Positions 35,799 to 47,393 of a DNA stretch of 64,000 nucleotides are shown here, in pieces. How positions within the stretch are numbered: the first letter of the stretch is position 1; each line of letters opens with the position of its first letter. The position numbers and the translations under genes were made by a program. The notes under the pieces were generated by a model that saw only the letters and a list, made by a program, of their open reading frames with translations, was not told where the DNA came from and did no database searches. Origin of the DNA: a virus. The stretch lies in the IMG/VR virus record IMGVR_UViG_3300012953_000001, positions 96,001-160,000 of that record. One strand, 5' to 3'.

Positions 35799-35828
35799 CG
35801 CAAAATTGAGCACCCTTCTTGGCATAAG
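35799..35828 (+). promoter_or_regulatory. Repeated phage promoter, copy 1
   Basis: CGCAAAA-N15-GGCATAAG. Confidence 0.7.
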
Positions 35829-35874
35829 AATGATGGAAAGAACAACCACCAGTCGTTTTCCTTAGGAGGGAAAA

Positions 35875-36234
35875 ATGCTCACAGACGTAACACAACAACA
35901 ACTTTCTACCGATGGCATCAAGCTCCGTGGAGGAGTGTTCCTGGACGACCAGGATCTCCTTGATGTTATCTCCCTAGCGGAGTTTGTGGAGGACCATCCT
36001 CGTGATGGCCACTACTACGTTGGGATGGATGGATGGGAAACCATTCGGAAGAATCTACCGGGCTCTAGGCAGTACCGGGGCCTTTCCGAGGATCTTCCCA
36101 CTGTCCACGCCGCACTGCTATCGGATGGCCGATGGCTGCTGTGGTGCTCGAAGACGCGTTTCGCTCCCGCGTATTTCGAGGTTCGTATCCCTAAGCCAAC
36201 TTCATCTGACCGGTTCGGTCTTAAGAGTTGGTAG
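35875..36234 (+). CDS. Hypothetical protein
   Basis: aggagg RBS, 119 aa. Confidence 0.65.
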   Translation: MLTDVTQQQLSTDGIKLRGGVFLDDQDLLDVISLAEFVEDHPRDGHYYVGMDGWETIRKNLPGSRQYRGLSEDLPTVHAALLSDGRWLLWCSKTRFAPAYFEVRIPKPTSSDRFGLKSW

Positions 36235-36261
36235 GAGCCCCGTCCACGTATGGTGGACTCC

Positions 36262-36292
36262 AAACGTGCAGAGTCCTTCTCCGCACGTTTTT
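36262..36292. terminator. Bidirectional intrinsic terminator between convergent genes
   Basis: aaacgtgcagag...ctccgcacgttttt. Confidence 0.6.
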
Positions 36293-36294
36293 AC

Positions 36295-36486
36295 TTAGTC
36301 ATCGCCCCAAGTATTGTCTATCCAATCTGGTTTATCAATCTTCTCAAGCTGGATGTCTTCGTACTCAGGATGAACATCAAAGAGAACCTCTAAGATCCTC
36401 TCTTTAGGGTAAGGAGCCTGGACCACAAAAGATTGTTCTGTTCTGGTCTCTGCATTAAATACAGTGGCCCTATAAAAAAGCATCAT
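36295..36486 (-). CDS. Hypothetical protein
   Basis: 63-aa ORF directly after 36489. Confidence 0.5.
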   Translation of the reverse strand: MMLFYRATVFNAETRTEQSFVVQAPYPKERILEVLFDVHPEYEDIQLEKIDKPDWIDNTWGDD

Positions 36487-36488
36487 GT

Positions 36489-36857
36489 TTAGATCTCTTC
36501 TGTATTATTGATATATTGATGGGCAGGCTTTCCCTTTTTAGGTGGGGGCACTGGGGTATTGATAACATTCGGGGGGAGTACCTTTCTCAACTCTTTGGGC
36601 GGTTTAAGCGCTTGGCAATCCATTGTTCGTTCCTGCTTCACCCGAAAGGCCACACCTTTATCTGCTAGCTCTTTCACGCTCTTCCCTTTGGGGTTACCTT
36701 CGGTAACCACCGCCACCCCCTGTGATACTTCAATATTTGTCCATTGGCAAATATATGTGGTTGTTTCAGGGGTGTTTTGGAGAGGTTTAGGCGGCGTACA
36801 GCAAGCAGAGCTAACTACTAATAAAATGACAAATACCTGTGGTGCTATACGCCTCAT
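36489..36857 (-). CDS. Putative lipoprotein
   Basis: Signal-like MRRIAPQVFVILLVVSSAC with lipobox-like Cys. Confidence 0.5.
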   Translation of the reverse strand: MRRIAPQVFVILLVVSSACCTPPKPLQNTPETTTYICQWTNIEVSQGVAVVTEGNPKGKSVKELADKGVAFRVKQERTMDCQALKPPKELRKVLPPNVINTPVPPPKKGKPAHQYINNTEEI

Positions 36858-36928
36858 AACTAATAATACACACGGTAATAAGCTAAGTAGAAGATCTTGA
36901 TTTATATTTTTATCGTGTCTGTGTATTA

Positions 36929-36958
36929 CGCGAAATACACTGTCAGTATTGGTATAAG
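36929..36958 (+). promoter_or_regulatory. Repeated phage promoter, copy 2
   Basis: CGCGAAA-N15-GGTATAAG upstream of the nucleotidyltransferase. Confidence 0.7.
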
Positions 36959-37005
36959 AACTATGCAGGGAAGTACTCTGTAACTTTGGTTAAAAGGAGA
37001 AGGAC

Positions 37006-37746
37006 ATGACTGTTCAACTATTTGAAGTGGGTGGTAGTATCCGCGACGAGATTCTCGGACTCGAAAACAAAGACCGAGACTTCGTAGGCGTCTGCCCCGA
37101 GGGGTGGGACGGTCTACTTTCTTGGGCAAACGAGACACTGGACAAAGTGTTTCTTGTAGCGCCCGAGTACTTCACTATTCGTGGCATCTTAGACAAAGAA
37201 GTGTTCGACATCGTTCTTGCTCGCAAGGATGGTGCGTACAGTGATGGAAGACGGCCCGATGAGGTGGAGCCCGGAACACTAGAGGACGATCTGGCGCGTC
37301 GAGATTTCACGATGAACGCCATTGCTCGCTCTGTAGATACGGGTGAAGTGTTTGACCCTTTCAATGGGATATCGGATGTCCGCAGTGGGGTCATCCGTTG
37401 TGTGGGCAATCACGAGAATAGGATTGAGGAAGATTCTCTAAGGATCTTACGTGCCCTGAGGTTCATGCTCACAAAGGGCCTGTCTTTGGACAGCCACCTA
37501 ACAGCAATGATTCATCAGGACAGGTTGGCCTATGACTGTGACGGTTGTGAGGATTGTCCTCGCATATCCGAGCTTCTAAATAACGTAAGTCGAGAACGTG
37601 TTCGTGAGGAGATCGCGAAAATGTTTAAAGCAGACTCTTTGCTTTCAGCAAGGATCCTATTCGACGAGCGACTTGTTCACGTGGACCTTCAGACAGCAAT
37701 CCTTGGGGATGACATCTGGCTGAAGCCCACAATGGAAAGAAGGTGA
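37006..37746 (+). CDS. cca: Compact class II tRNA nucleotidyltransferase (CCA-adding/poly(A) polymerase family)
   Basis: EVGGSIRDEILG, KDRDF (DxD), ARKDGAYSDGRRPDEV flexible loop, LARRDFTMNA, FDPFNGISD, EDSLRILRALRF. Confidence 0.85.
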   Translation: MTVQLFEVGGSIRDEILGLENKDRDFVGVCPEGWDGLLSWANETLDKVFLVAPEYFTIRGILDKEVFDIVLARKDGAYSDGRRPDEVEPGTLEDDLARRDFTMNAIARSVDTGEVFDPFNGISDVRSGVIRCVGNHENRIEEDSLRILRALRFMLTKGLSLDSHLTAMIHQDRLAYDCDGCEDCPRISELLNNVSRERVREEIAKMFKADSLLSARILFDERLVHVDLQTAILGDDIWLKPTMERR

Positions 37747-37749
37747 CTT

Positions 37750-37875
37750 ATGGACTTTAGATACATCATCGCAGCAGTTGTTGGTGTCGTTCTTTTACGA
37801 GACCTGTACGACACATACCGGAGAATCCAGGATGACAAAGAGTACGAACAAGAAACGGAAAGCGAAGAGTATTAA
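37750..37875 (+). CDS. Unannotated 41-aa membrane peptide
   Basis: MDFRYIIAAVVGVVLLRDLYDTYRRIQDDKEYEQETESEEY*; gaggtg RBS. Confidence 0.5.
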   Translation: MDFRYIIAAVVGVVLLRDLYDTYRRIQDDKEYEQETESEEY

Positions 37876-38020
37876 ATCTCGAAGCTTGCCTGCTCTCGGC
37901 TTAGCCCTCCGAACGGGGGGCTTTGCTGGGAAGCACCATACCCGGGACAGAGATGTTCTTCGGGGTTCAAGCCGAAAGGCAAAACACAAGGAGCGGTTAG
38001 GAACCTATGTTGAAGACTAA
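37832..38020 (+). CDS. Small basic protein
   Basis: ggag RBS; MTKSTNKKRKAKSIKSRSLPALGLALRTGGFAGKHH...RKAKHK. Confidence 0.5.
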   Translation: MTKSTNKKRKAKSIKSRSLPALGLALRTGGFAGKHHTRDRDVLRGSSRKAKHKERLGTYVED

Positions 38021-38046
38021 CCCTCCTTTTTACTAGGAGGTTTCCC

Positions 38047-38139
38047 ATGGAAACTAGATGCACAGAAGGACTACTAGTTTTTCTAGGAATGATGGTTTTA
38101 ATTATCACATATGTCTTATCACCATCTGAGCTTGGTTAA
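38047..38139 (+). CDS. Unannotated 30-aa membrane peptide
   Basis: aggagg RBS; METRCTEGLLVFLGMMVLIITYVLSPSELG*; TAATG overlap with the next gene. Confidence 0.6.
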   Translation: METRCTEGLLVFLGMMVLIITYVLSPSELG

Positions 38140-38429
38140 TGGAGAACATAAGTCCTTGTATGGGCAGCGGATACTGCTGCTGGAAGGTTTTATGTCCTAT
38201 AGGAGTAGATAGGCACGGACCACAGTCTGGTCCGTGTCCATCACTCACCTTCAAAGATGGTCGCCACTGGTGTGGTGTAGTTCTGGATGCAAAAACAGAG
38301 GAGGAGAAATCATGGCTAATCGAGACCTTGTCCGTAGGGGCGGGATGTTGCAGCGCAATGAACAGTTGGCGGAGGGAGCCGATCATAGATCGGACGAAGT
38401 ACCGCTACCCAGACCGGAATTCGTCTTAG
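38139..38429 (+). CDS. Cys-rich Zn/Fe-S cluster protein (YkgJ-like)
   Basis: PCMGSGYCCWKVLC, GPCPSL, HWCG, GAGCCS. Confidence 0.55.
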   Translation: MENISPCMGSGYCCWKVLCPIGVDRHGPQSGPCPSLTFKDGRHWCGVVLDAKTEEEKSWLIETLSVGAGCCSAMNSWRREPIIDRTKYRYPDRNSS

Positions 38430-38604
38430 AGTTCTTAAGATCTATTATCAAAAATAATCCAAACGGAGATGTCCTTGCTCTCTCCATGATGGAGGCGGCG
38501 AGAAATACCTCCGCCACAAAAGAAGAAATCGCAATTCTCAAAGAAGCCGTAAGAGGAGAAATGCGTTCTGGGTCAATGTGGCCTAAAGGATTCTTCTCAA
38601 GCCT

Positions 38605-38799
38605 ATGAGCCACCGACTCTGTTGGCAGGGCGGGTGTTCTCGCGCCAAGTCCTGTCAGCAGGGGCAGGATGGTGAAGGAACTACTTGCGAAATCCATAGT
38701 GCGTGGAGATCTGGCTTTATCGCTGGACTGATCGTTGGTGGTGCCCTTATCCTTGGCATCACTATTGGATTTGTGCTTGCGTGGGTATTGCATCCGTAA
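38605..38799 (+). CDS. Small membrane protein
   Basis: C-terminal GFIAGLIVGGALILGITIGFVLAWVL. Confidence 0.5.
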   Translation: MSHRLCWQGGCSRAKSCQQGQDGEGTTCEIHSAWRSGFIAGLIVGGALILGITIGFVLAWVLHP

Positions 38800-38807
38800 T
38801 TAAAGTG

Positions 38808-38837
38808 TGCAAAATATACACGCGTTTATGGGATAAG
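38808..38837 (+). promoter_or_regulatory. Repeated phage promoter, copy 3 (Y-RNA/rsr unit)
   Basis: TGCAAAA-N15-GGGATAAG, 11 nt before the first stem-loop unit. Confidence 0.7.
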
Positions 38838-38848
38838 ATTATTGGAAG

Positions 38849-38918
38849 CTCTTAGTTAGATGCCGACTAGGATTACATCGAACATTAGTATCTTGGTTAA
38901 CACCTTGCTAATTAAGAG
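38849..38918 (+). ncRNA. Y-RNA-like unit 1 (70 nt, minimal)
   Basis: Outer stem CTCTTAGTTAG/CTAATTAAGAG; ATGCC...CTTG motif; inner stem GACTAGGAT/ATCTTGGTT followed by TACAT. Confidence 0.65.
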
Positions 38919-38954
38919 TTTCTTTTTGAGCACGACTCGTCGTGTTCTTTCCAC

Positions 38955-39107
38955 GTTCCGAATGCGTTTGAGGAGTACATCAAAGCAAGTAAAGACGGTA
39001 GTAACGCGACTCCTCTGGAGCGTACAAGCTACCTGACTTTTCAAACCAGAGGCTGAACCTTATGGCTAGGTCTCTATTTTAACTCTTCAAGCAAACCTTG
39101 TCGGAAC
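38955..39107 (+). ncRNA. Y-RNA-like unit 2 (153 nt, with structured insert)
   Basis: GTTCCGA-ATGC...CTTG-TCGGAAC; inner stem GTTTGAGGAGT/ACTCTTCAAGC; insert contains CCTCTGG/CCAGAGG stem. Confidence 0.7.
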
Positions 39108-39117
39108 ATCTTTTATC

Positions 39118-39183
39118 GCTGCTGAATGCCGTACTGGATTACATAAGCAAAAAACGAATCTAGTACACCCCCTTGTCAGCAGC
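39118..39183 (+). ncRNA. Y-RNA-like unit 3 (66 nt, minimal)
   Basis: GCTGCTGA-ATGCC...CTTG-TCAGCAGC; inner stem GTACTGGATT/AATCTAGTAC followed by ACAT. Confidence 0.7.
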
Positions 39184-39226
39184 ATCCTTAGAGCCTGAAC
39201 TATTGTCACAATCAAAGGAGTTTCTC

Positions 39227-40819
39227 ATGAACCCAGCAATCTTCAACACTCACACCGTCGTCAACCGCAGCGCAGAAGCCCCGGCAACTAACACTACCAA
39301 TGAGGCTGGTGGTGCTGCGTACGAGCTTGAGCCCAAGGCTCAGCTTGCACAGTACGTTTGTACTGGAACCCTCAACCAAACTTTCTACGCCCATGCTGGA
39401 ACACAGCTGGAGAAAGTCATCGAGCTTTGCGAGAAGGTCGAGCCTGAGTTCATTGCTCAGTGCGCGGTCTACGCTCGCACCAAGGGCCACATGAAGGACA
39501 TGCCTGCTTTGCTGCTAGGTATCTTGTCCATCAGGGATACGGCTCTGTTCGCACAGATCTTTCCTCGTATCATTACGAATGGAAAGATGCTGCGGAACTT
39601 TGCTCAGGTGATCCGCTCCGGTTCTGTTGGTCGTAAGAGCTTCGGCTCTCGCGCCAAGAAGTGCATCCAGGAATGGCTTCGGTCAAGAACCCCAGAGCAG
39701 CTTCTTGTAGCTACTATTGGGAACAACCCGACGCTTGGTGACATCATCAAGATGGTCCACCCTAAGCCGGTGGACGAAGTGCAAAAGGCGATGTTCGCTT
39801 GGATCATTGGTAGGGACTTCAACATCGAAGTTCTCCCCCAAGGAATCCAAGAGTACATCTCCGGTACTCGGGTGACCGAACAGATGCTTCAGAACCTTCC
39901 TCACAGACTGCTTACAAAGTACGATCTGACGACGGAAGACTGGCGCGTCATTGCACTAAATAGTGGGTGGACTGCTAAGCGAATGAATCTCAACTCGTTC
40001 GCGAAGCACGGCGTATTCTCCTCAGAGATTGGAGACTGGACTGCTAAGGAATTGGCTTCCAGTATCCGAGATCCGAACGAGATTCGTCGGTCCAGATGCT
40101 TCCCCTACCAGTTGCTGACTACCTTTCAGAACGTGAACGATGATGTACCCACTGTCATCCGAAGCGCTCTTCAGGACGCCATGGAGGTGGCTATCGAGAA
40201 TGTGCCAACCATTACTGGTAATATGGCGGTTCTCGTAGACACCTCTGGTTCTATGGGTAGTCCCGTAACTGGGTACCGAGCAGGGTCAACTACTTCGACG
40301 AGTTGCGTCGATGTGGCGGCACTGATTGCTTCGGCGTTCCTTCGTAAGAATGAAGACGGCTGCACAGTCGTCCCATTCGATACTAGGGTCCACCAAGCAC
40401 GCCTCAATCCTCGCGATTCTGTGATGTCAAATGCACAGACTCTCGCGAACTTTGGTGGCGGCGGTACTGATGTATCTTGCGCCCTTCGGCACCTCAACCA
40501 TGAGGGACATGAAGGTAAGTTGGTAGTCATCATTTCGGACAACGAGAGTTGGATGAATGATGATCAGTACCGCTACTACAATAGCAGTACTTCTACAGCG
40601 CAGGAGTGGGAGCATTACAAAGAGCGCAACCCTGGGGCTCGCCTCGTTTGTGTTGACATCGCACCGTACGGAAGCACTCAAGTGCCCACGGATAAGGATG
40701 TCCTCAACGTTGGTGGCTTCTCGGACTCTGTGTTTGACGTGATTGCGTCATTCGCAGGGGAGCGACCTCAATCAGATCATTGGGTATCAATGATTGAGGC
40801 TCAAGCTCAAGCCAATTAG
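39227..40819 (+). CDS. rsr: Ro60/Rsr TROVE-domain RNA-binding protein with vWA domain
   Basis: aaggag RBS then ATG 39227; NEAGGAAYEL, AVYARTKGHMKDMPALL, NGKMLRNFAQVIRSG, RMNLNSFAKHG, FPYQLL, MIDAS VLVDTSGSM, IISDNESW. Confidence 0.92.
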   Translation: MNPAIFNTHTVVNRSAEAPATNTTNEAGGAAYELEPKAQLAQYVCTGTLNQTFYAHAGTQLEKVIELCEKVEPEFIAQCAVYARTKGHMKDMPALLLGILSIRDTALFAQIFPRIITNGKMLRNFAQVIRSGSVGRKSFGSRAKKCIQEWLRSRTPEQLLVATIGNNPTLGDIIKMVHPKPVDEVQKAMFAWIIGRDFNIEVLPQGIQEYISGTRVTEQMLQNLPHRLLTKYDLTTEDWRVIALNSGWTAKRMNLNSFAKHGVFSSEIGDWTAKELASSIRDPNEIRRSRCFPYQLLTTFQNVNDDVPTVIRSALQDAMEVAIENVPTITGNMAVLVDTSGSMGSPVTGYRAGSTTSTSCVDVAALIASAFLRKNEDGCTVVPFDTRVHQARLNPRDSVMSNAQTLANFGGGGTDVSCALRHLNHEGHEGKLVVIISDNESWMNDDQYRYYNSSTSTAQEWEHYKERNPGARLVCVDIAPYGSTQVPTDKDVLNVGGFSDSVFDVIASFAGERPQSDHWVSMIEAQAQAN

Positions 40820-40991
40820 GCTTTTCCCAGGTTGCGCTCCCGTAAGGGGGGAGAGGGGTAGATTAGGCATCGGGCCTAACCCTCTCCTCCCATGCGGTTT
40901 CTTTTTAGTACTCCGGGTAGTCCGCTGAGCGGACTGCCTAAACCCCCATTATTCTTACCTAGAGGAGGAAGCTATCGACAATAAATGGACG

Positions 40992-41393
40992 ATGACTATT
41001 ACTGATGTCATCGATAATGAGCATAAATGCGTAATAGAAATAGAACTCGATGAAGACTTTGAAAAAGGTTTCATGGAGGTCAACCAGATCAAAAAGTGGA
41101 GTAACCCCAAATTCAAAGACTTCTTCAAAAAGGTCCTCTGGCGAACACTTATGTCGCTGGAAAAAGGTGGTTACGACACAATCTATGACAAGTACACGGG
41201 AAGGCCCGTAGGGAGCCTAAAGGACGTTGCGGTAGGCGATATCATTTCCTTTTGGAAGGAAAGCGGCGGTGAGCACACAAGAGTGATTGCAGATGTGCGC
41301 CGTGGGATATTTGTTACCGAGCCCCTCTGGGAAACAGATAAGTCCCTACGAGTTAAGCATGAAAATGTTACCCGAGTAGTGCGTAAACTATAG
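40992..41393 (+). CDS. Hypothetical protein
   Basis: 133-aa ORF. Confidence 0.55.
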   Translation: MTITDVIDNEHKCVIEIELDEDFEKGFMEVNQIKKWSNPKFKDFFKKVLWRTLMSLEKGGYDTIYDKYTGRPVGSLKDVAVGDIISFWKESGGEHTRVIADVRRGIFVTEPLWETDKSLRVKHENVTRVVRKL

Positions 41394-41417
41394 CAGTATC
41401 GAGTGGTGCCACGCGGC

Positions 41418-41768
41418 TCAAAAAAGTCCGTGGTGCCACTCTTTCCACATGATAAGCATGCCAAACAGATGCCAACATAGTACTAGACTGTAGATGGCTA
41501 CCAGCCCAGAAATAGTCCACCTATACCTGTCTGCTATTTTTTTATCTATGAACAATAGGCAGGCCGAAACAATGGCCACCTTAGCTATCAGGAACAGATG
41601 AGGGCCTACACCATAGATGTAAGCCATGATTGGGTTCATCTCCTCAACGCCAGCGCGGAGGAAATACAAGGTGATAACTCCATCTAAAAGGTTTAACGCA
41701 TGTAGTATTGGTATCTTTAAATCAATACTAAAAAGATTAACCCAGACTCGGGATTTATTATCAAACAT
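41418..41768 (-). CDS. Membrane protein (DUF5658-like)
   Basis: LNLLDGVITLYFLRAGVEEMNPIM plus further TM helices. Confidence 0.6.
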   Translation of the reverse strand: MFDNKSRVWVNLFSIDLKIPILHALNLLDGVITLYFLRAGVEEMNPIMAYIYGVGPHLFLIAKVAIVSACLLFIDKKIADRYRWTISGLVAIYSLVLCWHLFGMLIMWKEWHHGLF

Positions 41769-41769
41769 A

Positions 41770-42075
41770 TCAGGTCACCAATTTTAAGTCTGCTTTTCCA
41801 TCTCTCCTAAGAGGAACCATCCCGTCGCTTAAAGCGCTCCTGTGGACCTCAATTTGTTCAATGCCATAGGGGTTTTCTTCGCCGTGATCTACCGCCACGC
41901 GCACATCTGGAAAGACACGCAAAATCGTGCCAGTAGCTCCCGCTAAAATACGTAGGCTTACGAGATTCCCGAATTGGCCATCCCCCACCTGTACCTCCTT
42001 AACGAAGCGAACTCTGGTGCCTTTCTCAAACAAGTTTTGGGGCTCCTCCCCTTTTTTCCATATCTTTTCCGACAT
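41770..42075 (-). CDS. Hypothetical protein (SH3-like barrel possible)
   Basis: FEKGTRVRFV...GATGTILRV. Confidence 0.5.
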   Translation of the reverse strand: MSEKIWKKGEEPQNLFEKGTRVRFVKEVQVGDGQFGNLVSLRILAGATGTILRVFPDVRVAVDHGEENPYGIEQIEVHRSALSDGMVPLRRDGKADLKLVT

Positions 42076-42265
42076 TAAGTGCTCTTTCTATTAAGAGCCC
42101 CCTTCATGCCTAAATATTACATGTGTAATAACGGTGTGAGGAATGCGCTAATATTTTATAAAAAAGGTGTTCTACGAAAAGCGGGAACCAGCGTGCATCT
42201 AGGCCATAATTTTTGGAATAAGAGCACTGCGGAAAAAAATAACCGCTAATATAAGGAGGAACATT

Positions 42266-42454
42266 ATGGCCAGCGTTGATTGGACAAAACTGTCCGTTGC
42301 TGAACTTCTTGACCCTAAGGGCCATGGGTATACGATGTGTACCCACTGCACAGGGTATGGAAGCAGTTTGAAGGAATCTTCTTCTCGGTGTACCAAGTGC
42401 AAAGGTACAGGGTTAATTACCCAAGAAAAACGGAGAAAGAAGAATGGTAGATAA
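42266..42454 (+). CDS. DnaJ-type zinc finger small protein
   Basis: CTHCTGYG ... CTKCKGTG; aaggagga RBS. Confidence 0.65.
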   Translation: MASVDWTKLSVAELLDPKGHGYTMCTHCTGYGSSLKESSSRCTKCKGTGLITQEKRRKKNGR

Positions 42455-42983
42455 AGTAGCGGTATTCTCTACATCAGAGATATTCAGACATTGGTACCCC
42501 CGATTAGGACTACCGATTGTCGCTGAGATCGAAACCGCCGATGGTAGAACATCTAAGTTTGCATCCACTGGCTCATTAGAAAAAGCTTTGGAGGACGACT
42601 ACACCATCTATGTAGTGTCAACCAGAAGCACTCTATCTGAGCACGATGAGTGGTGGTTAGAGCTTGTAGACCGAGAAAACGTGTACCTTGCCGACGCTAA
42701 ATTTGAAGGTGTCGAACTTGGTGCCTGGGGCTACGAGGACGAGAACGTGGAAAAAGCAAATAGTGCTTGGATGAGGCTATACACCAAACTTGGTTTTGAC
42801 TGGCCTAAAGATGGCCTTGATGGGTTTCTTGACGACTGCCCAGTGGCCCATTGGACTACTGCGCGGTCGGAGTTAAAGCTTAGGCATAGCATACGCTTGG
42901 GCAGAGACTTTGAGGTCCCGTCCCCTAGACAACTAGAACTAAAACTACAAATGGATAACGGAGAAGATCATGAGCAACAATAA
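42444..42983 (+). CDS. Hypothetical protein
   Basis: 179-aa ORF coupled to its neighbours. Confidence 0.65.
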   Translation: MVDKVAVFSTSEIFRHWYPRLGLPIVAEIETADGRTSKFASTGSLEKALEDDYTIYVVSTRSTLSEHDEWWLELVDRENVYLADAKFEGVELGAWGYEDENVEKANSAWMRLYTKLGFDWPKDGLDGFLDDCPVAHWTTARSELKLRHSIRLGRDFEVPSPRQLELKLQMDNGEDHEQQ

Positions 42984-43161
42984 AATTGGAATCGGCGGAG
43001 ACATCGACTACCTAAAAGACTTGGTTGAAAGATATGGTGGTGAAGCAGAGGTAAAAACTGTTTGGGAGGGAGAGAAGAAGCGCCTGTCAGCGGTTATTCC
43101 CCCGCTAGATATGCAGGTAAACGTACGTAGGAATCCAAACAAAACTTTGGATGATAAATAA
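42970..43161 (+). CDS. Hypothetical protein
   Basis: ggag RBS, 63 aa. Confidence 0.55.
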   Translation: MSNNKIGIGGDIDYLKDLVERYGGEAEVKTVWEGEKKRLSAVIPPLDMQVNVRRNPNKTLDDK

Positions 43162-43227
43162 TGGCTAGGAAGGTCTACCTCCTAGGCAGTGGGTCTAATA
43201 AACTACTAATAACAGGAGGTGGTCTGT

Positions 43228-43668
43228 ATGCAGGAAGAGACAAAAAGCACGCTTTCAGACATCGAGAACTTTACTATGGCAACGGTAGCCCCATTCTTAG
43301 CGGCCTCTTTTGAAGGCCCTCTACAGTATGGATACAAAGAGTTTGATAGCCCGGATAGAAACACCACTTACCTGATGTTCTGCCACAAAGACCGTGTTCT
43401 GTTTTACGGTATCGACACCCCAAAGAAGCAGTTTGTTTTCCCAATGTTATCCAAAGAGGCTGACTGGGACGTACTCCATGAGTTATTCTCGCCATGCTTG
43501 TTTGTTAAGAAAGGTATCTTCTCAGATACAGAGCTTGAGAACCTTTGCTACGCAACAAGTGATGACGAGATTGATGAGTTGGAGTCCATTGAACCTGCTG
43601 ATGGTGAGGCGGAGAACGACTTCTTTTTGCGTAACGCAATGTGGCTTCTAAACCCGGTAATTCACTAG
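43228..43668 (+). CDS. Acidic hypothetical protein
   Basis: aggagg RBS; ATG 43228. Confidence 0.6.
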   Translation: MQEETKSTLSDIENFTMATVAPFLAASFEGPLQYGYKEFDSPDRNTTYLMFCHKDRVLFYGIDTPKKQFVFPMLSKEADWDVLHELFSPCLFVKKGIFSDTELENLCYATSDDEIDELESIEPADGEAENDFFLRNAMWLLNPVIH

Positions 43669-43722
43669 TTCCCCCTTCCCAACATTCGGGCTAGAAGCCT
43701 TTATTAGGGCGGCTCTGTTTTG

Positions 43723-43752
43723 TGCAGAGTCGCCCTTCTTTTATGGCATAAG
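43723..43752 (+). promoter_or_regulatory. Repeated phage promoter, copy 4
   Basis: TGCAGAG-N15-GGCATAAG. Confidence 0.65.
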
Positions 43753-43774
43753 ACACTTGAAGGAGGATACTGCT

Positions 43775-44038
43775 ATGAATAAACCTATTAAATTCTCCAC
43801 CTTCAAGATGATTGTGGACCTTAATGCGCTGCTATTATTTTCGGTGATACCTACTGTCGTCCTGCTACCTTTCTTTGGCTTTTCGTCAGGGACAACTTAT
43901 GGAGTGGCGCTTGGTGGAGTCTTCTTACTCACGCTAATGAGTGATGAAGACTTCCGTATTGGGTATCAAGAAGGCGTTGAAGAGGAATACGAAGCCTATC
44001 TTGAGGAGGAGCAAGAAGCTCAGCCTAGTTCTGAATAG
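43775..44038 (+). CDS. Two-TM membrane protein with acidic tail
   Basis: aaggagg RBS; hydrophobic helices then EEEYEAYLEEEQE. Confidence 0.6.
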   Translation: MNKPIKFSTFKMIVDLNALLLFSVIPTVVLLPFFGFSSGTTYGVALGGVFLLTLMSDEDFRIGYQEGVEEEYEAYLEEEQEAQPSSE

Positions 44039-44060
44039 AAATGCTTACCTTCGCGGTAAG

Positions 44061-44135
44061 AAGTGGCGTCCCTTACAGGGGCGCTACTTTTTTACCTAAA
44101 AGAAAAGCGGGGCAACCAATAAAGGCTACCCCGCT
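44061..44135. terminator. Back-to-back intrinsic terminators for convergent units
   Basis: aagtggcgtccc/ggggcgctactt plus T-run (plus strand); agcgggg/ccccgct preceded by an A-run (minus strand). Confidence 0.7.
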
Positions 44136-44159
44136 AATCTTGGTTAGTGTGTGGGTTAC

Positions 44160-44228
44160 TTAGCTACAGCAGCATGACTCACTGCAACAAGGTTTCTCAC
44201 ACGCACATTTACAACAATCCTTATCCAT
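44160..44228 (-). CDS. Unannotated 22-aa Cys-rich metallothionein-like peptide
   Basis: aaggagggatt-ATG; MDKDCCKCACEKPCCSESCCCS*; followed by a terminator. Confidence 0.65.
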   Translation of the reverse strand: MDKDCCKCACEKPCCSESCCCS

Positions 44229-44244
44229 AATCCCTCCTTAGTTA

Positions 44245-45912
44245 CTATCCAACAATGACCCAGCCTCTACCGGCACCAACGTAAACAAGCATCACAGAAG
44301 CCATTTTGAAATCGAGGGTAAGGTGTGGCTTACCTTCAACATGGAATCCCTGTGGATCTACGATTCGAACCTTGGCGTTCTCGGCAAGCCCGGTAGCCTT
44401 AACAGTGATTGCCATACCAATCAGGTCATGACACCCGTTAGGATCCCCAAACATTCCACCTTCTTCGGCCTCACCGATAGTGGGCGTTGGGGGTGGTGTA
44501 ACACTTTCGCCGCCACCCTCAGACAAGTGGCCTTCATACTCCGCCATCGCTGCTTTGTACTTATCCATTTCCGAATTGCTGAAGCTGAAACGTCCGAACT
44601 CATACATTGGGTGCCCCTCTGCGGGCAGAGTCAACGTAAAGGTTTCATCCTTACCAAGCTCATTAATGAGGAAGTTAGTACAAAAGCAGTCAGGACCCTC
44701 AAAGCTAATGTAGTGCCCACTCTCTTCACCTGTGGTTTCTAAGATCTTCCAAGCATACAGCTGCTTACGCAGATGCTCATGGAGAAGACCTAACTCCATC
44801 CTCGCTGAAGAAACTTCCGACGAAGCGTACTGTCGAAGATTCGAACTCATCTGTGGAAGAACTGAGTCGTAAAGATTGTCCCCAAACTCATTCTGCGCTT
44901 CGACGATCCCATCAATAGAGGCGGTGAAGGAGTCCTCCATTAGCTGATCAGCATTCTTATACCCCGCTTCGATATCAGCAACCGCACTATCGTTTTGGTT
45001 CTTGTAGCTGTTGAAATCAGACAGGTGCTGCTGAGCATCTTTACGATGCGAGTCTACCGTATCCCCAAGCGCACGAATCGCGCCCTCGTTGGCAACGATA
45101 GCCTCGCTCAGATCTTTATTGAAGTTCTCAATAATCGCCTGAAGACGACTCTCAGTGCTAGATAGCTCATCGGTAATCCTCTTACCAAGTAGCTCGTCCG
45201 CCGCAAGGCGAGCGTTTCTTTCACCAGCAACAGCAGCTACACGAAGATTCCTCTCAGCGACAACAGCCTCTGAAGCTTCTGCTCGATCCGCTGCTCTCTC
45301 AGCGTCATAAGTCTCTTTCTGGACAACTGCGGCCCCAAGAAACTTAGCGACAGGAACAAACACACCTTGATCGTTTTTGATCTCGATCTGGTCTAGCTCG
45401 TCATTGTAGACACAAGTGCCCTCGCCACCATCTTCGAACTCCCAAGAAGGAGTGCCCATCTCGTCAAGTCCAGTGATCCAGGCAATCTGGCCTTCTCTAT
45501 TGTAAAGAGGGTCGCCCTCTTCGACAGCAGGGTCTGTCTTGACGATGAAGCGAGCACCTTCTTGAAGATCCTCTGGTGCAAGGTCAGCAGACTTACCTAC
45601 CTGCCTTTTAACAGCATCTCGCCAAGTAACCTGTAGGCTGGCAAGCTGTGCTCTAAGGCCAGCAGCCTCCTTCTCCAAGTTCTCAGCGAGAGTCTCGAAT
45701 GCAGCTTCTGCGGCCTCTCTGACAGCGTCGTCGCCTGACTCAATAGCGGCCTGAAGCTCAGCTTTCTGATTCTCAAGATCAGATAGGATGCTCGCAACTG
45801 AGTTAGCATACTTACTATCTATTGCACCAAGCTCTGTCTGGTTGACCAACTGACCAACCTGACGTGCTGCGTGTTCAATAAGCTCCCACGCGGGTCTAAT
45901 ATTATGTGACAT
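44245..45912 (-). CDS. Coiled-coil protein with C-terminal virion/tail-fibre-type domain
   Basis: Long acidic heptads; C-terminal TFTLTLPAEG...VRIVDPQG...LTLDFKMASVMLVYVGAGRGWVI resembles termini of phage fibre proteins. Confidence 0.5.
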   Translation of the reverse strand: MSHNIRPAWELIEHAARQVGQLVNQTELGAIDSKYANSVASILSDLENQKAELQAAIESGDDAVREAAEAAFETLAENLEKEAAGLRAQLASLQVTWRDAVKRQVGKSADLAPEDLQEGARFIVKTDPAVEEGDPLYNREGQIAWITGLDEMGTPSWEFEDGGEGTCVYNDELDQIEIKNDQGVFVPVAKFLGAAVVQKETYDAERAADRAEASEAVVAERNLRVAAVAGERNARLAADELLGKRITDELSSTESRLQAIIENFNKDLSEAIVANEGAIRALGDTVDSHRKDAQQHLSDFNSYKNQNDSAVADIEAGYKNADQLMEDSFTASIDGIVEAQNEFGDNLYDSVLPQMSSNLRQYASSEVSSARMELGLLHEHLRKQLYAWKILETTGEESGHYISFEGPDCFCTNFLINELGKDETFTLTLPAEGHPMYEFGRFSFSNSEMDKYKAAMAEYEGHLSEGGGESVTPPPTPTIGEAEEGGMFGDPNGCHDLIGMAITVKATGLAENAKVRIVDPQGFHVEGKPHLTLDFKMASVMLVYVGAGRGWVIVG

Positions 45913-46117
45913 GATTCGCCCTCCTTTGTTTATAGCTCTACATCACTATAGTCAGCCAGCTCCCAAAAAACTCATTGAATTCAGAAGACTGGACTGGCCT
46001 ATGTACAGATAATAGTCACCTCGTAACACGAGTAGAATGGGTTTATGAAATTTATTTTTACGGCTACCCATTCAGGTCGCTAACAGCATATCTCAAAATA
46101 ATACGGTGCCGAAGTCC

Positions 46118-46147
46118 TGCAAACTAAACTAAATTTTTAGGCATAAG
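46118..46147 (+). promoter_or_regulatory. Repeated phage promoter, copy 5
   Basis: TGCAAAC-N15-GGCATAAG. Confidence 0.7.
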
Positions 46148-46194
46148 AGTATTGGTAAGAAGTGTCGCCAACTAATATTTTTAAGGAGTTGATT

Positions 46195-46968
46195 ATGGCA
46201 ACAGTTATTATTGGTGATGTACATGGGTGCGTCGAGGAGCTTAACCAACTTCTAGAAAAGGTTTACGATAACGTAGACGCTGTGGACGAATTTATTTTCG
46301 CAGGCGATCTCGTAGATAAGGGCCCAGGCTCTGTCGCAGTCCTTCGGTACGTCAAGGCTCTAAGTGCTCTCCACAATGTAACTATTGTGGAGGGCAACCA
46401 TGAGAACAAAAACTTCAGGTTTTGGAAGAAGGTTGAGGCGGGTGATCATGAGCGTGCCATGAGTATGAAGAACTCTTCGGAGCTTTCTAAGATCATGGAG
46501 AAGGCAGACACCCCGCTCAGAAACTGGCTGCGTGACAAGGTCGTCCCTTATGCAGTCCGTCCAATGCTTGGGGTGGTCGTTGTTCATGGAGGAATCACCC
46601 CATCGGTTGAAGACCTCCCCACGGACTACACCTTGCTTGGGGGTAAAAACAAGAAGCGGGTACTACGCAGCATGTATATCCGTTATATTGACGACGAGGG
46701 AGTAATGATTCCTTTCGGTAAGGAGCGATCTGGAGACAAGTTCTGGGCTGAAAAATATGATGGTCGCTTTGGCCACGTATACTTCGGACACCAGCCTTGG
46801 ATGAAAGACGGGCCTGAGTACTTTGAGTTTGCTACGGGAATCGATCTCGGCTGCGTCCATGGGGGCTACCTCTGCGCAGCCGTTGTTCGAGGACCACTGC
46901 TTGCTCATAGGGAATTCGTTACAGTCCGTGCGGGCAAGGAGTACTGCCCTCCCCTCTTGTTGGACTAA
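46195..46968 (+). CDS. Metallophosphoesterase (PrpE/ApaH/Pnkp-phosphatase-like)
   Basis: IIGDVHGC, AGDLVDKGP, EGNHE, VVHGG, YFGH, GIDLGCVHGG; aaggag RBS. Confidence 0.85.
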   Translation: MATVIIGDVHGCVEELNQLLEKVYDNVDAVDEFIFAGDLVDKGPGSVAVLRYVKALSALHNVTIVEGNHENKNFRFWKKVEAGDHERAMSMKNSSELSKIMEKADTPLRNWLRDKVVPYAVRPMLGVVVVHGGITPSVEDLPTDYTLLGGKNKKRVLRSMYIRYIDDEGVMIPFGKERSGDKFWAEKYDGRFGHVYFGHQPWMKDGPEYFEFATGIDLGCVHGGYLCAAVVRGPLLAHREFVTVRAGKEYCPPLLLD

Positions 46969-47006
46969 CCTCCCCTCCCCGCCCAAGGCCCGTCCGGGCA
47001 AACTTA

Positions 47007-47045
47007 GGGGCCGCTACACTATTTGGTGTGGCGGTCCCTTCTTTT
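47007..47045 (+). terminator. Intrinsic terminator
   Basis: ggggccgctacac/gtgtggcggtccc plus T-rich tail. Confidence 0.7.
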
Positions 47046-47092
47046 ACCTATTACTCGCCTTCTTTAAATATGATCAGTAATATAATATTAAT

Positions 47093-47314
47093 ATGTTACC
47101 GTTCTATTTCAAAAAGAGCCCAAAGATGCCTAAAAAAGAAAACGGCCCCGTACCCCAAAAAACTCTAACAAAGTCAGAGGTTGAGGGGTGGCTCCGCAAG
47201 GCGAGCGTTCGAGAGTTAAATATTTTCGTAGACAAAAACGCCATCATCGTATGGCTTTGTCGTGCGTTATTAAGTGCTTGGAATGACTCGGATTCTTATA
47301 AAGGCAACCCCTGA
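47093..47314 (+). CDS. Hypothetical protein
   Basis: 73-aa ORF; start uncertain. Confidence 0.4.
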   Translation: MLPFYFKKSPKMPKKENGPVPQKTLTKSEVEGWLRKASVRELNIFVDKNAIIVWLCRALLSAWNDSDSYKGNP

Positions 47315-47321
47315 CAATCTT

Positions 47322-47351
47322 TGCAAAATGTAGTAGCTCCATGGGTATAAG
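47322..47351 (+). promoter_or_regulatory. Repeated phage promoter, copy 6
   Basis: TGCAAAA-N15-GGTATAAG. Confidence 0.7.
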
Positions 47352-47393
47352 AATTGTGCATGAAGCACACTTAATTTCCTAAGGAGGGAAGAC

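Follow-up and report, generated by a model that had tools for sequence, protein, structure and literature searches.

Three tandem Y RNA units upstream of a phage Ro60/Rsr gene as probable members of the bacterial Yrl family

The Ro60/Rsr gene (rsr) of an uncultured marine phage is preceded by three stem-loops of one architecture, raising the question of whether these are Y RNAs and, if so, whether they belong to a family already described from bacteria and phages. The locus lies at 38808–40819 of a 64,000-nucleotide stretch of DNA (the window, meaning the whole stretch analysed), which represents bases 96001–160000 of the 178,429-bp IMG/VR virus record IMGVR_UViG_3300012953_000001; the record has direct terminal repeats, and DNA of the source phage recurs across marine metagenomes. 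A preliminary description, made from the letters of the DNA, had placed here a promoter, three stem-loops with a shared architecture and differing stem sequences, and a TROVE–vWA gene, and had proposed a Y RNA-like identity for the stem-loops. Each of these elements was recovered, in the order promoter, three stem-loops, rsr, terminator (Table 1), and comparison with bacterial relatives supports assignment of the three units to the bacterial Yrl family of Rsr-binding RNAs, with the phage units presumed to bind Rsr likewise.

The three units share a layout in which an outer stem is followed by R-AUGC, an inner stem ending in GGA(U/G)UACAU, an apical part, the returning strand of the inner stem, 4–5 nucleotides, CUUG and the returning strand of the outer stem. 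Minimum free energy folds give this architecture in each case, with z-scores of -4.7, -3.6 and -5.6 for units 1, 2 and 3, respectively, and none of 200 shuffled sequences as stable; the stem sequences themselves differ among the units, with 57% overall identity between units 1 and 3. The apical part comprises 16 nucleotides in units 1 and 3, which are hairpin-only, and 105 nucleotides in unit 2, in agreement with the short loops and the long insert first described. Unit 1 begins at the predicted transcript start with a 16-bp outer stem, followed by GAUGC, an inner stem ending in GGAUUACAU, a 16-nucleotide loop with CAUCGAACA, and CCUUG; unit 3 combines an outer stem GCUGCUGA/UCAGCAGC with AUGC, the same inner-stem end, an A-rich loop and CCUUG. 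The outer stem of unit 2 (GUUCCGA/UCGGAAC) carries a CGAAUGC motif and encloses an 11-bp inner stem ending in GGAGUACAU, topped by an apical domain of two or three hairpins that has neither a T-arm nor a D-arm. All three lie 44–383 nucleotides upstream of rsr and on its strand, and a tolerant motif-plus-stem scan of both strands of the 178-kb genome returned these units and one low-scoring match, lacking CUUG, inside a long open reading frame.

Recognition by existing family models was limited. No match at gathering thresholds, Y RNA families included, was obtained when the whole window was compared with Rfam. The check with the Rfam YrlA and Y_RNA models that had been proposed in the preliminary description produced no match at E ≤ 10 on the locus for YrlA (RF02553; threshold 69 bits) or the tRNA models, and the metazoan-type Y RNA model RF00019 gave nothing at gathering in the window or at E ≤ 10 over 38700–39300; what it did produce was a weak end-to-end alignment of unit 1 with YrlB (RF02565; 18 bits, E 0.96), with no RF02565 match at E ≤ 10 for units 2 and 3. 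One long non-coding RNA match at E ≤ 10 on the locus was rejected as spurious. As a positive control, Rfam identified a Salmonella-type YrlB (105.5 bits) and a YrlA (70.9 bits) on contig L003, a contig that is enterobacterial, though deposited as 'Escherichia phage' (UNVERIFIED_ORG).

A covariance model, R1, constructed from nine short phage units only, retrieves phage units outside its seed and also the YrlB of contig L003 (L003:876-945) at 35.7 bits (E ~1e-6), the very RNA scored highly by the Rfam YrlB model, establishing homology of the short phage units to the YrlB type, a Y RNA known from experiment to be Rsr-bound. Elsewhere in the 178-kb genome R1 finds no further unit. Its score on unit 3 falls from 74.5 bits on the + strand to 5.6 bits on the - strand, so that the functional strand is that of rsr; G–U pairs are present when the units are read on this strand. 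Unit 2 is missed by R1, filters off included, on account of its 105-nucleotide apical part, and since the model cannot score long apical parts, this unit is assigned to the family by reading its sequence directly and by the stem scan.

The letters common to the units and to Salmonella YrlB and YrlA are AUGC, GGAnUACAU and CUUG: the Salmonella-type YrlB reads GCGCGA-AUGC-UGGCCGGGAUUACAU...UUUG-UCGCGC and the YrlA reads GGCACGA-AUGC-UGGUGGAUCUACAC...CUUG-UCGCGCC. Two features published for these RNAs are the motif GNCGAAN0-1G on the 5' strand and, in YrlA, a conserved YUAY (PMC4201824; 10.1101/312249). The former is resembled by CGAAUG in unit 2 (UCCGAAUG) and UGAAUG in unit 3 (GCUGAAUG), at seven of eight positions each, and the corresponding region in relatives ranges from CCGAAUG to CAAAUG; the latter is fitted by UUAC in units 1 and 3, with GUAC in unit 2. 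Y RNAs have further been defined as lying within 4 kb of rsr on the same strand (PMC4201824), a description that applies to the window units, to the units of nine other phage loci and to all 74 matches from metagenomic rsr loci described below, while folding and covariation display the paired 5' and 3' ends, the stem with a Ro60-binding site and the variable far end expected of a Yrl RNA. Letters held in common with Salmonella YrlB and YrlA, together with this partial correspondence to published features, place the units in the bacterial Yrl family.

Covariation of the stems, G–U pairs included, had been read from the three units and is borne out by an alignment of 20 units, in which both partners have changed in 14 of 17 pairs; pairing holds in 90.9% of cells, versus 31–53% when the 3' partners are slid, and none of 500 shuffles reaches the covariation score. 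This alignment was fitted to R1, which favours pairing, but the margin is large all the same.

Linkage to rsr was followed across phages and metagenomes. An alignment-based scan of IMG/VR yielded 22 phage loci with a related Rsr; no relative was recovered by a single-protein scan of IMG/VR, nor any match by a DNA search of deposited phages. Units adjoin rsr in nine further distinct phage loci, numbering two to seven per locus (L015 excepted), upstream or downstream of the gene and always on its strand. The loci L005 and L006 (Rsr 77% identical) share the promoter and likewise contain three units, of which units 2 and 3 bear other stems and apical parts; L007 (Rsr 57%) has the promoter and two units, L008 (Rsr 48%) three units upstream of rsr, and L021 (Rsr 44%) seven tandem units (2088-2910) between three tRNA genes and the phage rsr. 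Two to four units stand downstream of rsr in L022, L023, L025 and L026; in L015 the stem scan detects a single unit and R1 gives two weak matches just downstream of rsr. R1 gave nothing significant in L002, L009, L010, L013, L018, L019, L024 or the Thermus phage phiLo (L029), with weak matches (E 0.2–0.5) in L015 and L024; the R1-negative loci may contain other Y RNA types. In the closest deposited phage, Myxococcus phage Mx1 (L002; Rsr 45.6%), no Yrl-type unit was found upstream of the Ro60 gene.

Unit 1 is identical to L005:2635-2714 at 80 of 80 positions, whereas its flanks are 51–77%, the neighbouring spacers ~51% and the rsr DNA 76.5% identical; either very strong constraint acts on every base or the unit was recently exchanged.

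Beyond the phages, R1 was applied to 80 metagenomic loci whose Rsr is 45–56% identical to the phage protein, the search of rsr loci with a model made from the units having been another of the checks put forward. It returned 74 matches, all of them on the rsr strand and most just after the gene. Tandem arrays are common in such loci, L061 holding three R1-type units and two Rfam-grade YrlA. Mixed arrays of three to five Y RNAs, in which short R1-type hairpins accompany Rfam-grade YrlA, were noted in L061, L079, L038 and L084, and the short hairpins of these arrays are invisible to Rfam. A reciprocal scan of IMG/VR by module pattern, dominated by chance matches, gave R1-confirmed modules in 8 of 80 loci; tblastn detected rsr only in the L021 contig, most of the R1-confirmed loci being short, and of five further records, two carry a Ro60 vWA gene, the rest being fragments.

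The gene beside the units is a bona fide Rsr/Ro60 orthologue. Its product matches the Pfam families PF25045 vWA_Ro60 (53.7 bits, cut-off 27.7) and PF05731 TROVE (25.5 bits, cut-off 23) and PHROG 850 'RNA-binding protein' (E 1.3e-41), and aligns over residues 20–509 with the Ro60 of phiLo (PDB 9KOP, E 3e-18) and over residues 22–510 with Deinococcus radiodurans Rsr (2NVO). It is ~50% identical to very many bacterial Rsr proteins and 62–79% identical to its nearest relatives (P0002, P0004 and P0005); the MIDAS residues D338, T339, S340 and S342 are invariant in six relatives. A ribosome-binding site, AAGGAG, stands six nucleotides ahead of the ATG.

Table 1. Features of the Y RNA–rsr locus, in window coordinates (z, fold z-score; R1, score with the covariance model from short phage units)
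Feature	Position	Strand	Remarks
Phage promoter	38808..38837	+	class YGCRRA-N16-GGNATAAG
Unit 1, hairpin-only (YrlB class)	38844..38923 (core 38849-38918)	+	-24 kcal/mol, z -4.67; R1 68.1 bits
Spacer hairpin	38928..38952	+	8 bp, 4-nt loop, then UUCUUUCC; -10.3 kcal/mol, z -2.9
Unit 2	38953..39109 (core 38955-39107)	+	-49.2 kcal/mol, z -3.55; architecture read directly
Unit 3, hairpin-only (YrlB class)	39118..39183	+	-22.7 kcal/mol, z -5.62; R1 74.5 bits
rsr / Ro60 orthologue, 530 aa	39227..40819	+	TROVE ring and vWA domain, MIDAS motif DTSGS
Likely terminator of the Y RNA–rsr unit	40840..40906	+	strong hairpin, -40.8 kcal/mol, then UUUCUUUUU

How the units might be expressed is indicated by the promoter, which comprises a -35-like TGCAAA (38808–38813) and a -10-like GATAAG (38832–38837), the position of the latter predicting a start at ~38844, the first base of the outer stem of unit 1. 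The promoter class is real: eight copies of the motif occur in the genome, versus 0.07 in block shuffles, all eight on the + strand and six of them inside the window, where the copies span 35799–47352, with two more at genome positions 49584 and 70214; a related pattern occurs four times in the window against 0.31 expected. Members of the class also precede a tRNA nucleotidyltransferase gene (37006–37746), a metallophosphoesterase gene (46162–46968) and other small genes, and the motif is kept ahead of unit 1 in the relatives L005 and L007. Within the genome motif scan no second copy was present between unit 3 and rsr, and rsr must therefore be read through the units. The spacer hairpin between units 1 and 2, with its tail UUCUUUCC, might serve for leaky termination or for processing; at this position L005 forms a hairpin that differs in sequence but has the same U/C-rich tail after it (z -3.1), and the spacer hairpin of L007 is indistinguishable from shuffles (z 0.06).

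RNA libraries contain sequence from the locus. Contigs at 38844–38999, 38851–39154, 38867–39123 and 38862–38926 come from four marine metatranscriptome runs of four studies; the second of these contigs (308 nucleotides) bridges units 1 and 2 and the start of unit 3, while the last runs on into an L005-type spacer and thus derives from the sister phage. In two studies contigs start at 38843 and 38844, coinciding with the predicted start, which gives at most a weak hint of its correctness, and contigs continue across the spacer hairpin. Over 38500–38842 and 39172–39927 the four runs gave no contigs, missing cover in contig data not being evidence. A variant strain seen in one run differs in unit 1 only within the apical loop; in unit 2, A39048G and T39075C together turn the closing A–U pair of an apical hairpin into G–C, and C39037A breaks a weakly predicted pair. 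The single promoter, the lack of another before rsr and the contig joining units 1–3 hint at one transcript that may be processed into three RNAs.

Under the mechanism proposed here, one phage promoter would transcribe the units as the leader of the rsr transcript, from which the individual RNAs would probably be freed through processing, or because transcription stops in part at the hairpin and U-tract after unit 1. The 5' and 3' ends of each RNA would pair into a stem, and the asymmetric loop of R-AUGC opposite N4-5 CUUG, with the GGAnUACAU inner-stem end, would form a handle for the outside of the Rsr ring, the same handle being present in enterobacterial YrlB and YrlA. That the units are Y RNAs binding the phage Rsr through this AUGC/CUUG internal loop and the adjoining helices is considered very probable. 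Units 1 and 3, as hairpin-only RNAs, would most likely gate or regulate the Rsr cavity, and the 105-nucleotide non-tRNA-like module of unit 2 would most likely link Rsr to an effector. For that effector a tentative first candidate, by analogy with D. radiodurans, Salmonella and phiLo, is PNPase, the 3'-5' exoribonuclease of the host; it is the enzyme of the host that is proposed because the phage encodes none, the RNase PH domain of PNPase having no match in its genome, from which RtcB is absent as well. The resulting ribonucleoprotein would remodel or degrade structured RNA during infection.

Several observations weigh against the identification of the units as Rsr-binding Y RNAs. No Rfam Y RNA family is reached at gathering score, the 18 bits of the YrlB alignment comparing with a threshold of 97. 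Unit 1 has UAGAUGC instead of CGAAUGC and hence fits the published Rsr-binding motif poorly (GUUAGAUG in place of GNCGAAN0-1G; its loop contains AUCGAACA). The units are without the tRNA-like domain that Chen et al. 2014 found, on one Y RNA or more, in each species that they studied (PMC4201824). The Yrl RNAs of phiLo are unmatched by R1, making that precedent one of analogy, not homology. RNA libraries can hold DNA, so that contigs are no proof of transcription, and assembled contigs cannot reveal discrete ends or processing.

Among other explanations, the one that survives best is a cis-acting role, in which the stem-loops would form a structured leader of the rsr mRNA, serving autoregulation by Rsr of translation or stability through the 5' untranslated region, or attenuation, instead of yielding trans-acting Y RNAs. 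The obligatory read-through from the promoter ahead of unit 1, the terminator-like hairpin and U-tract after that unit and the mere 43 nucleotides between the end of unit 3 and the start codon would all suit such a leader, but modules that stand downstream of rsr, as in L022, L023, L025, L026 and most of the 80 metagenomic loci, cannot be leaders there, and the upstream Y RNAs of Mycobacterium smegmatis become stable Rsr-bound RNAs (PMC4201824). A leader acting solely in cis is accordingly judged improbable, and a cis role and a Y RNA role do not exclude each other.

Less probable again is that the units are decoys or sponges for a host Rsr, or for another host RNA-binding protein, and would thereby knock out RNA surveillance in the host. 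RNAs whose handle is that of bacterial Y RNAs could plausibly bind a host Rsr as well, and three copies per transcript would be good for titration; the phage has, however, an intact rsr of its own within this transcription unit, and modules accompany rsr in phages that differ widely from one another. Hairpins formed by chance, generic terminators or repeats at the DNA level unrelated to Rsr, which the U-rich tracts after units 1 and 2 and the lack of an Rfam family at threshold might suggest, are effectively excluded by the fold z-scores and strong covariation, by the confinement of the matches in independent loci to the rsr strand with none in the rest of the genome, and by a unit 1 kept intact between phages whose Rsr proteins have diverged.

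The main unusual feature of the units is the missing tRNA-like part. The preliminary description had seen no canonical T-arm in the insert of unit 2, and a tRNA-like module proved absent from all three units, with no YrlA or tRNA match at E ≤ 10, no ARAGORN tRNA and, in unit 2, no T-loop motif; no unit of L005, L007 or L008 has such a module either. Rfam-grade YrlA is present in 15 of 20 related metagenomic loci, and clear T- and D-arms occur in the phage loci L021 and L025. The apical domain of unit 2 is homologous to that of unit 3 of L008, with the letters AGACGRUAGUAA and CCUCUGG kept and three compensatory pairs; exact-pattern scans of IMG/VR for the domain returned only the L008 contig, and its definition rests on two lineages and one strain variant. 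A reading of this domain as a mimic of the 16S rRNA 3' end (CUCCUCU) was dropped, as the L008 homologue has CCCUCU and the letters are not kept.

Unusual features are thus units invisible to Rfam, the lack of a tRNA-like module, the conserved apical domain of unit 2 and the perfect conservation of unit 1 with L005. A speculative and rather doubtful explanation is that the lineage formed by the window phage, L005/L006, L007/L030 and L008 dropped the tRNA mimic, that the ~100-nucleotide domain of unit 2 instead tethers Rsr to an effector not reached by tRNA mimicry, and that unit 1 has a sequence-specific partner of its own.

tRNA-like elements of several kinds were observed beside rsr in other loci. 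In L021, four long modules have a T-loop-like GGUUCRAnUC, two of them with a D-arm-like part as well, and score below the Rfam YrlA gathering score. An element at L026:4804-4926, just after the phage rsr and among ordinary Y modules and a tRNA, has the acceptor stem, D-arm and T-arm of a full tRNA cloverleaf (50.7 bits with the Rfam tRNA model), the anticodon arm being replaced by 60 nucleotides. This insert, in which CUCUUG and a capped stem are followed by GGAUGC and a stem with a GUACA loop, resembles a Y module in circular permutation, so that the topology is the inverse of YrlA. Contig L003 has at 1079-1187 a third Y-like unit with a T-arm GCAGGUUCAAUCCCUGC, placed after YrlB and YrlA and before rtcB, and not flagged by Rfam at gathering. 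Phage Mx1 carries a tRNA-like element (L002:2313-2395) with a GGGUUCGAUUCC T-arm and a weak tRNA-Sec match (20 bits), ~520 nucleotides upstream of the Ro60 gene, two small annotated coding sequences lying between them. tmRNA genes directly adjoin the downstream Y modules at L023:6210-6577 and L025:4922-5318. In the window phage, the tRNA nucleotidyltransferase gene noted above, 1.1 kb ahead of the Y RNAs and likewise behind a promoter of the YGCRRA-N16-GGNATAAG class, encodes a compact 246-residue protein of the tRNA nucleotidyltransferase/poly(A) polymerase family; the four tRNA genes of the phage are distant from the locus, at genome 166–169 kb.

The known picture of the Ro60/Y RNA system is unchanged by the locus, which adds to it an unannotated set of Y RNAs that Rfam does not see. 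A small handle model (AUGC / GGAnUACAU / CUUG) picks up RNAs of this kind next to the rsr of many phages and bacteria, and its recovery of RNAs missed by Rfam indicates that current annotation overlooks most hairpin-only Y RNAs. Large phages repeatedly carry Rsr together with Y RNA sets of their own, with two to seven members in most loci read, and the compact arrangement of three RNAs and one protein in a single operon suits experiments on the effects of different Y RNA modules on one Rsr ring.

Comparison with known systems places the locus among several precedents. Hairpin-only Y RNAs, long hairpins with a small loop, are a described class represented by YrlB of Salmonella Typhimurium and M. 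smegmatis and by Yrn2 of D. radiodurans (Chen et al. 2013, 2014; PMC4201824). Like YrlB (RF02565), units 1 and 3 are long hairpins with paired ends and a small apical loop, beside rsr on its strand, and their architecture and letters match the Salmonella-type RNA, with which unit 1 aligns from end to end; unlike YrlB, their stems are unrelated in sequence, as the score far below gathering reflects, and unit 1 lacks the CGAA letters. Salmonella YrlB is encoded downstream of rsr, in an rsr-yrlBA-rtcBA operon, whereas the window units lie upstream, behind a phage promoter, and include two hairpin-only RNAs.

The tRNA-mimicking YrlA (RF02553), known from more than 250 bacteria and 22 phages (PMC4201824; 10.1101/312249), is modular, comprising an Rsr-binding stem CGAAUGC...CUUGUC, the YUAY element and an apical effector module; unit 2 has the same layout with an apical module devoid of T-arm, D-arm and closed acceptor stem. 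In M. smegmatis, YrlA and YrlB are encoded upstream of rsr and cut from a single precursor (PMC4201824), and Y RNAs likewise precede rsr in the window phage and in mycobacteriophages (PMC4201824). In contrast to the window units, the mycobacterial and mycobacteriophage sets contain a tRNA-like YrlA, which RNase P cleaves and to which CCA is added; the window phage has its tRNA nucleotidyltransferase gene close upstream despite the lack of any tRNA-like part in its units.

A further published parallel in layout is phiLo, whose Ro60 was reported in 2025 (NAR) to bind two upstream Y-like RNAs (Yrl1 and Yrl2) and to form a RYPER-like complex with the host PNPase (PMC12135203; PDB 9KOP, 9L5Y). As in phiLo, the Ro60 gene of the 178-kb window phage stands behind tandem Y-like RNAs in an upstream noncoding region; the two Ro60 proteins are, however, only ~24% identical, phiLo has two units where the window phage has three, and the upstream region of phiLo contains no R1 match. 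The novelty claimed in the preliminary description was thus overstated, as hairpin-only Y RNAs, upstream Y RNAs from a single precursor (PMC4201824) and a phage Ro60 with two Y-like RNAs (PMC12135203) had already been published; with these precedents and the tandem metagenomic arrays, a promoter followed by tandem Y RNAs and rsr is a known layout, and the locus provides new but fairly ordinary members of the known family of bacterial and phage Y RNA partners, unusual mainly in being without a tRNA-like part.

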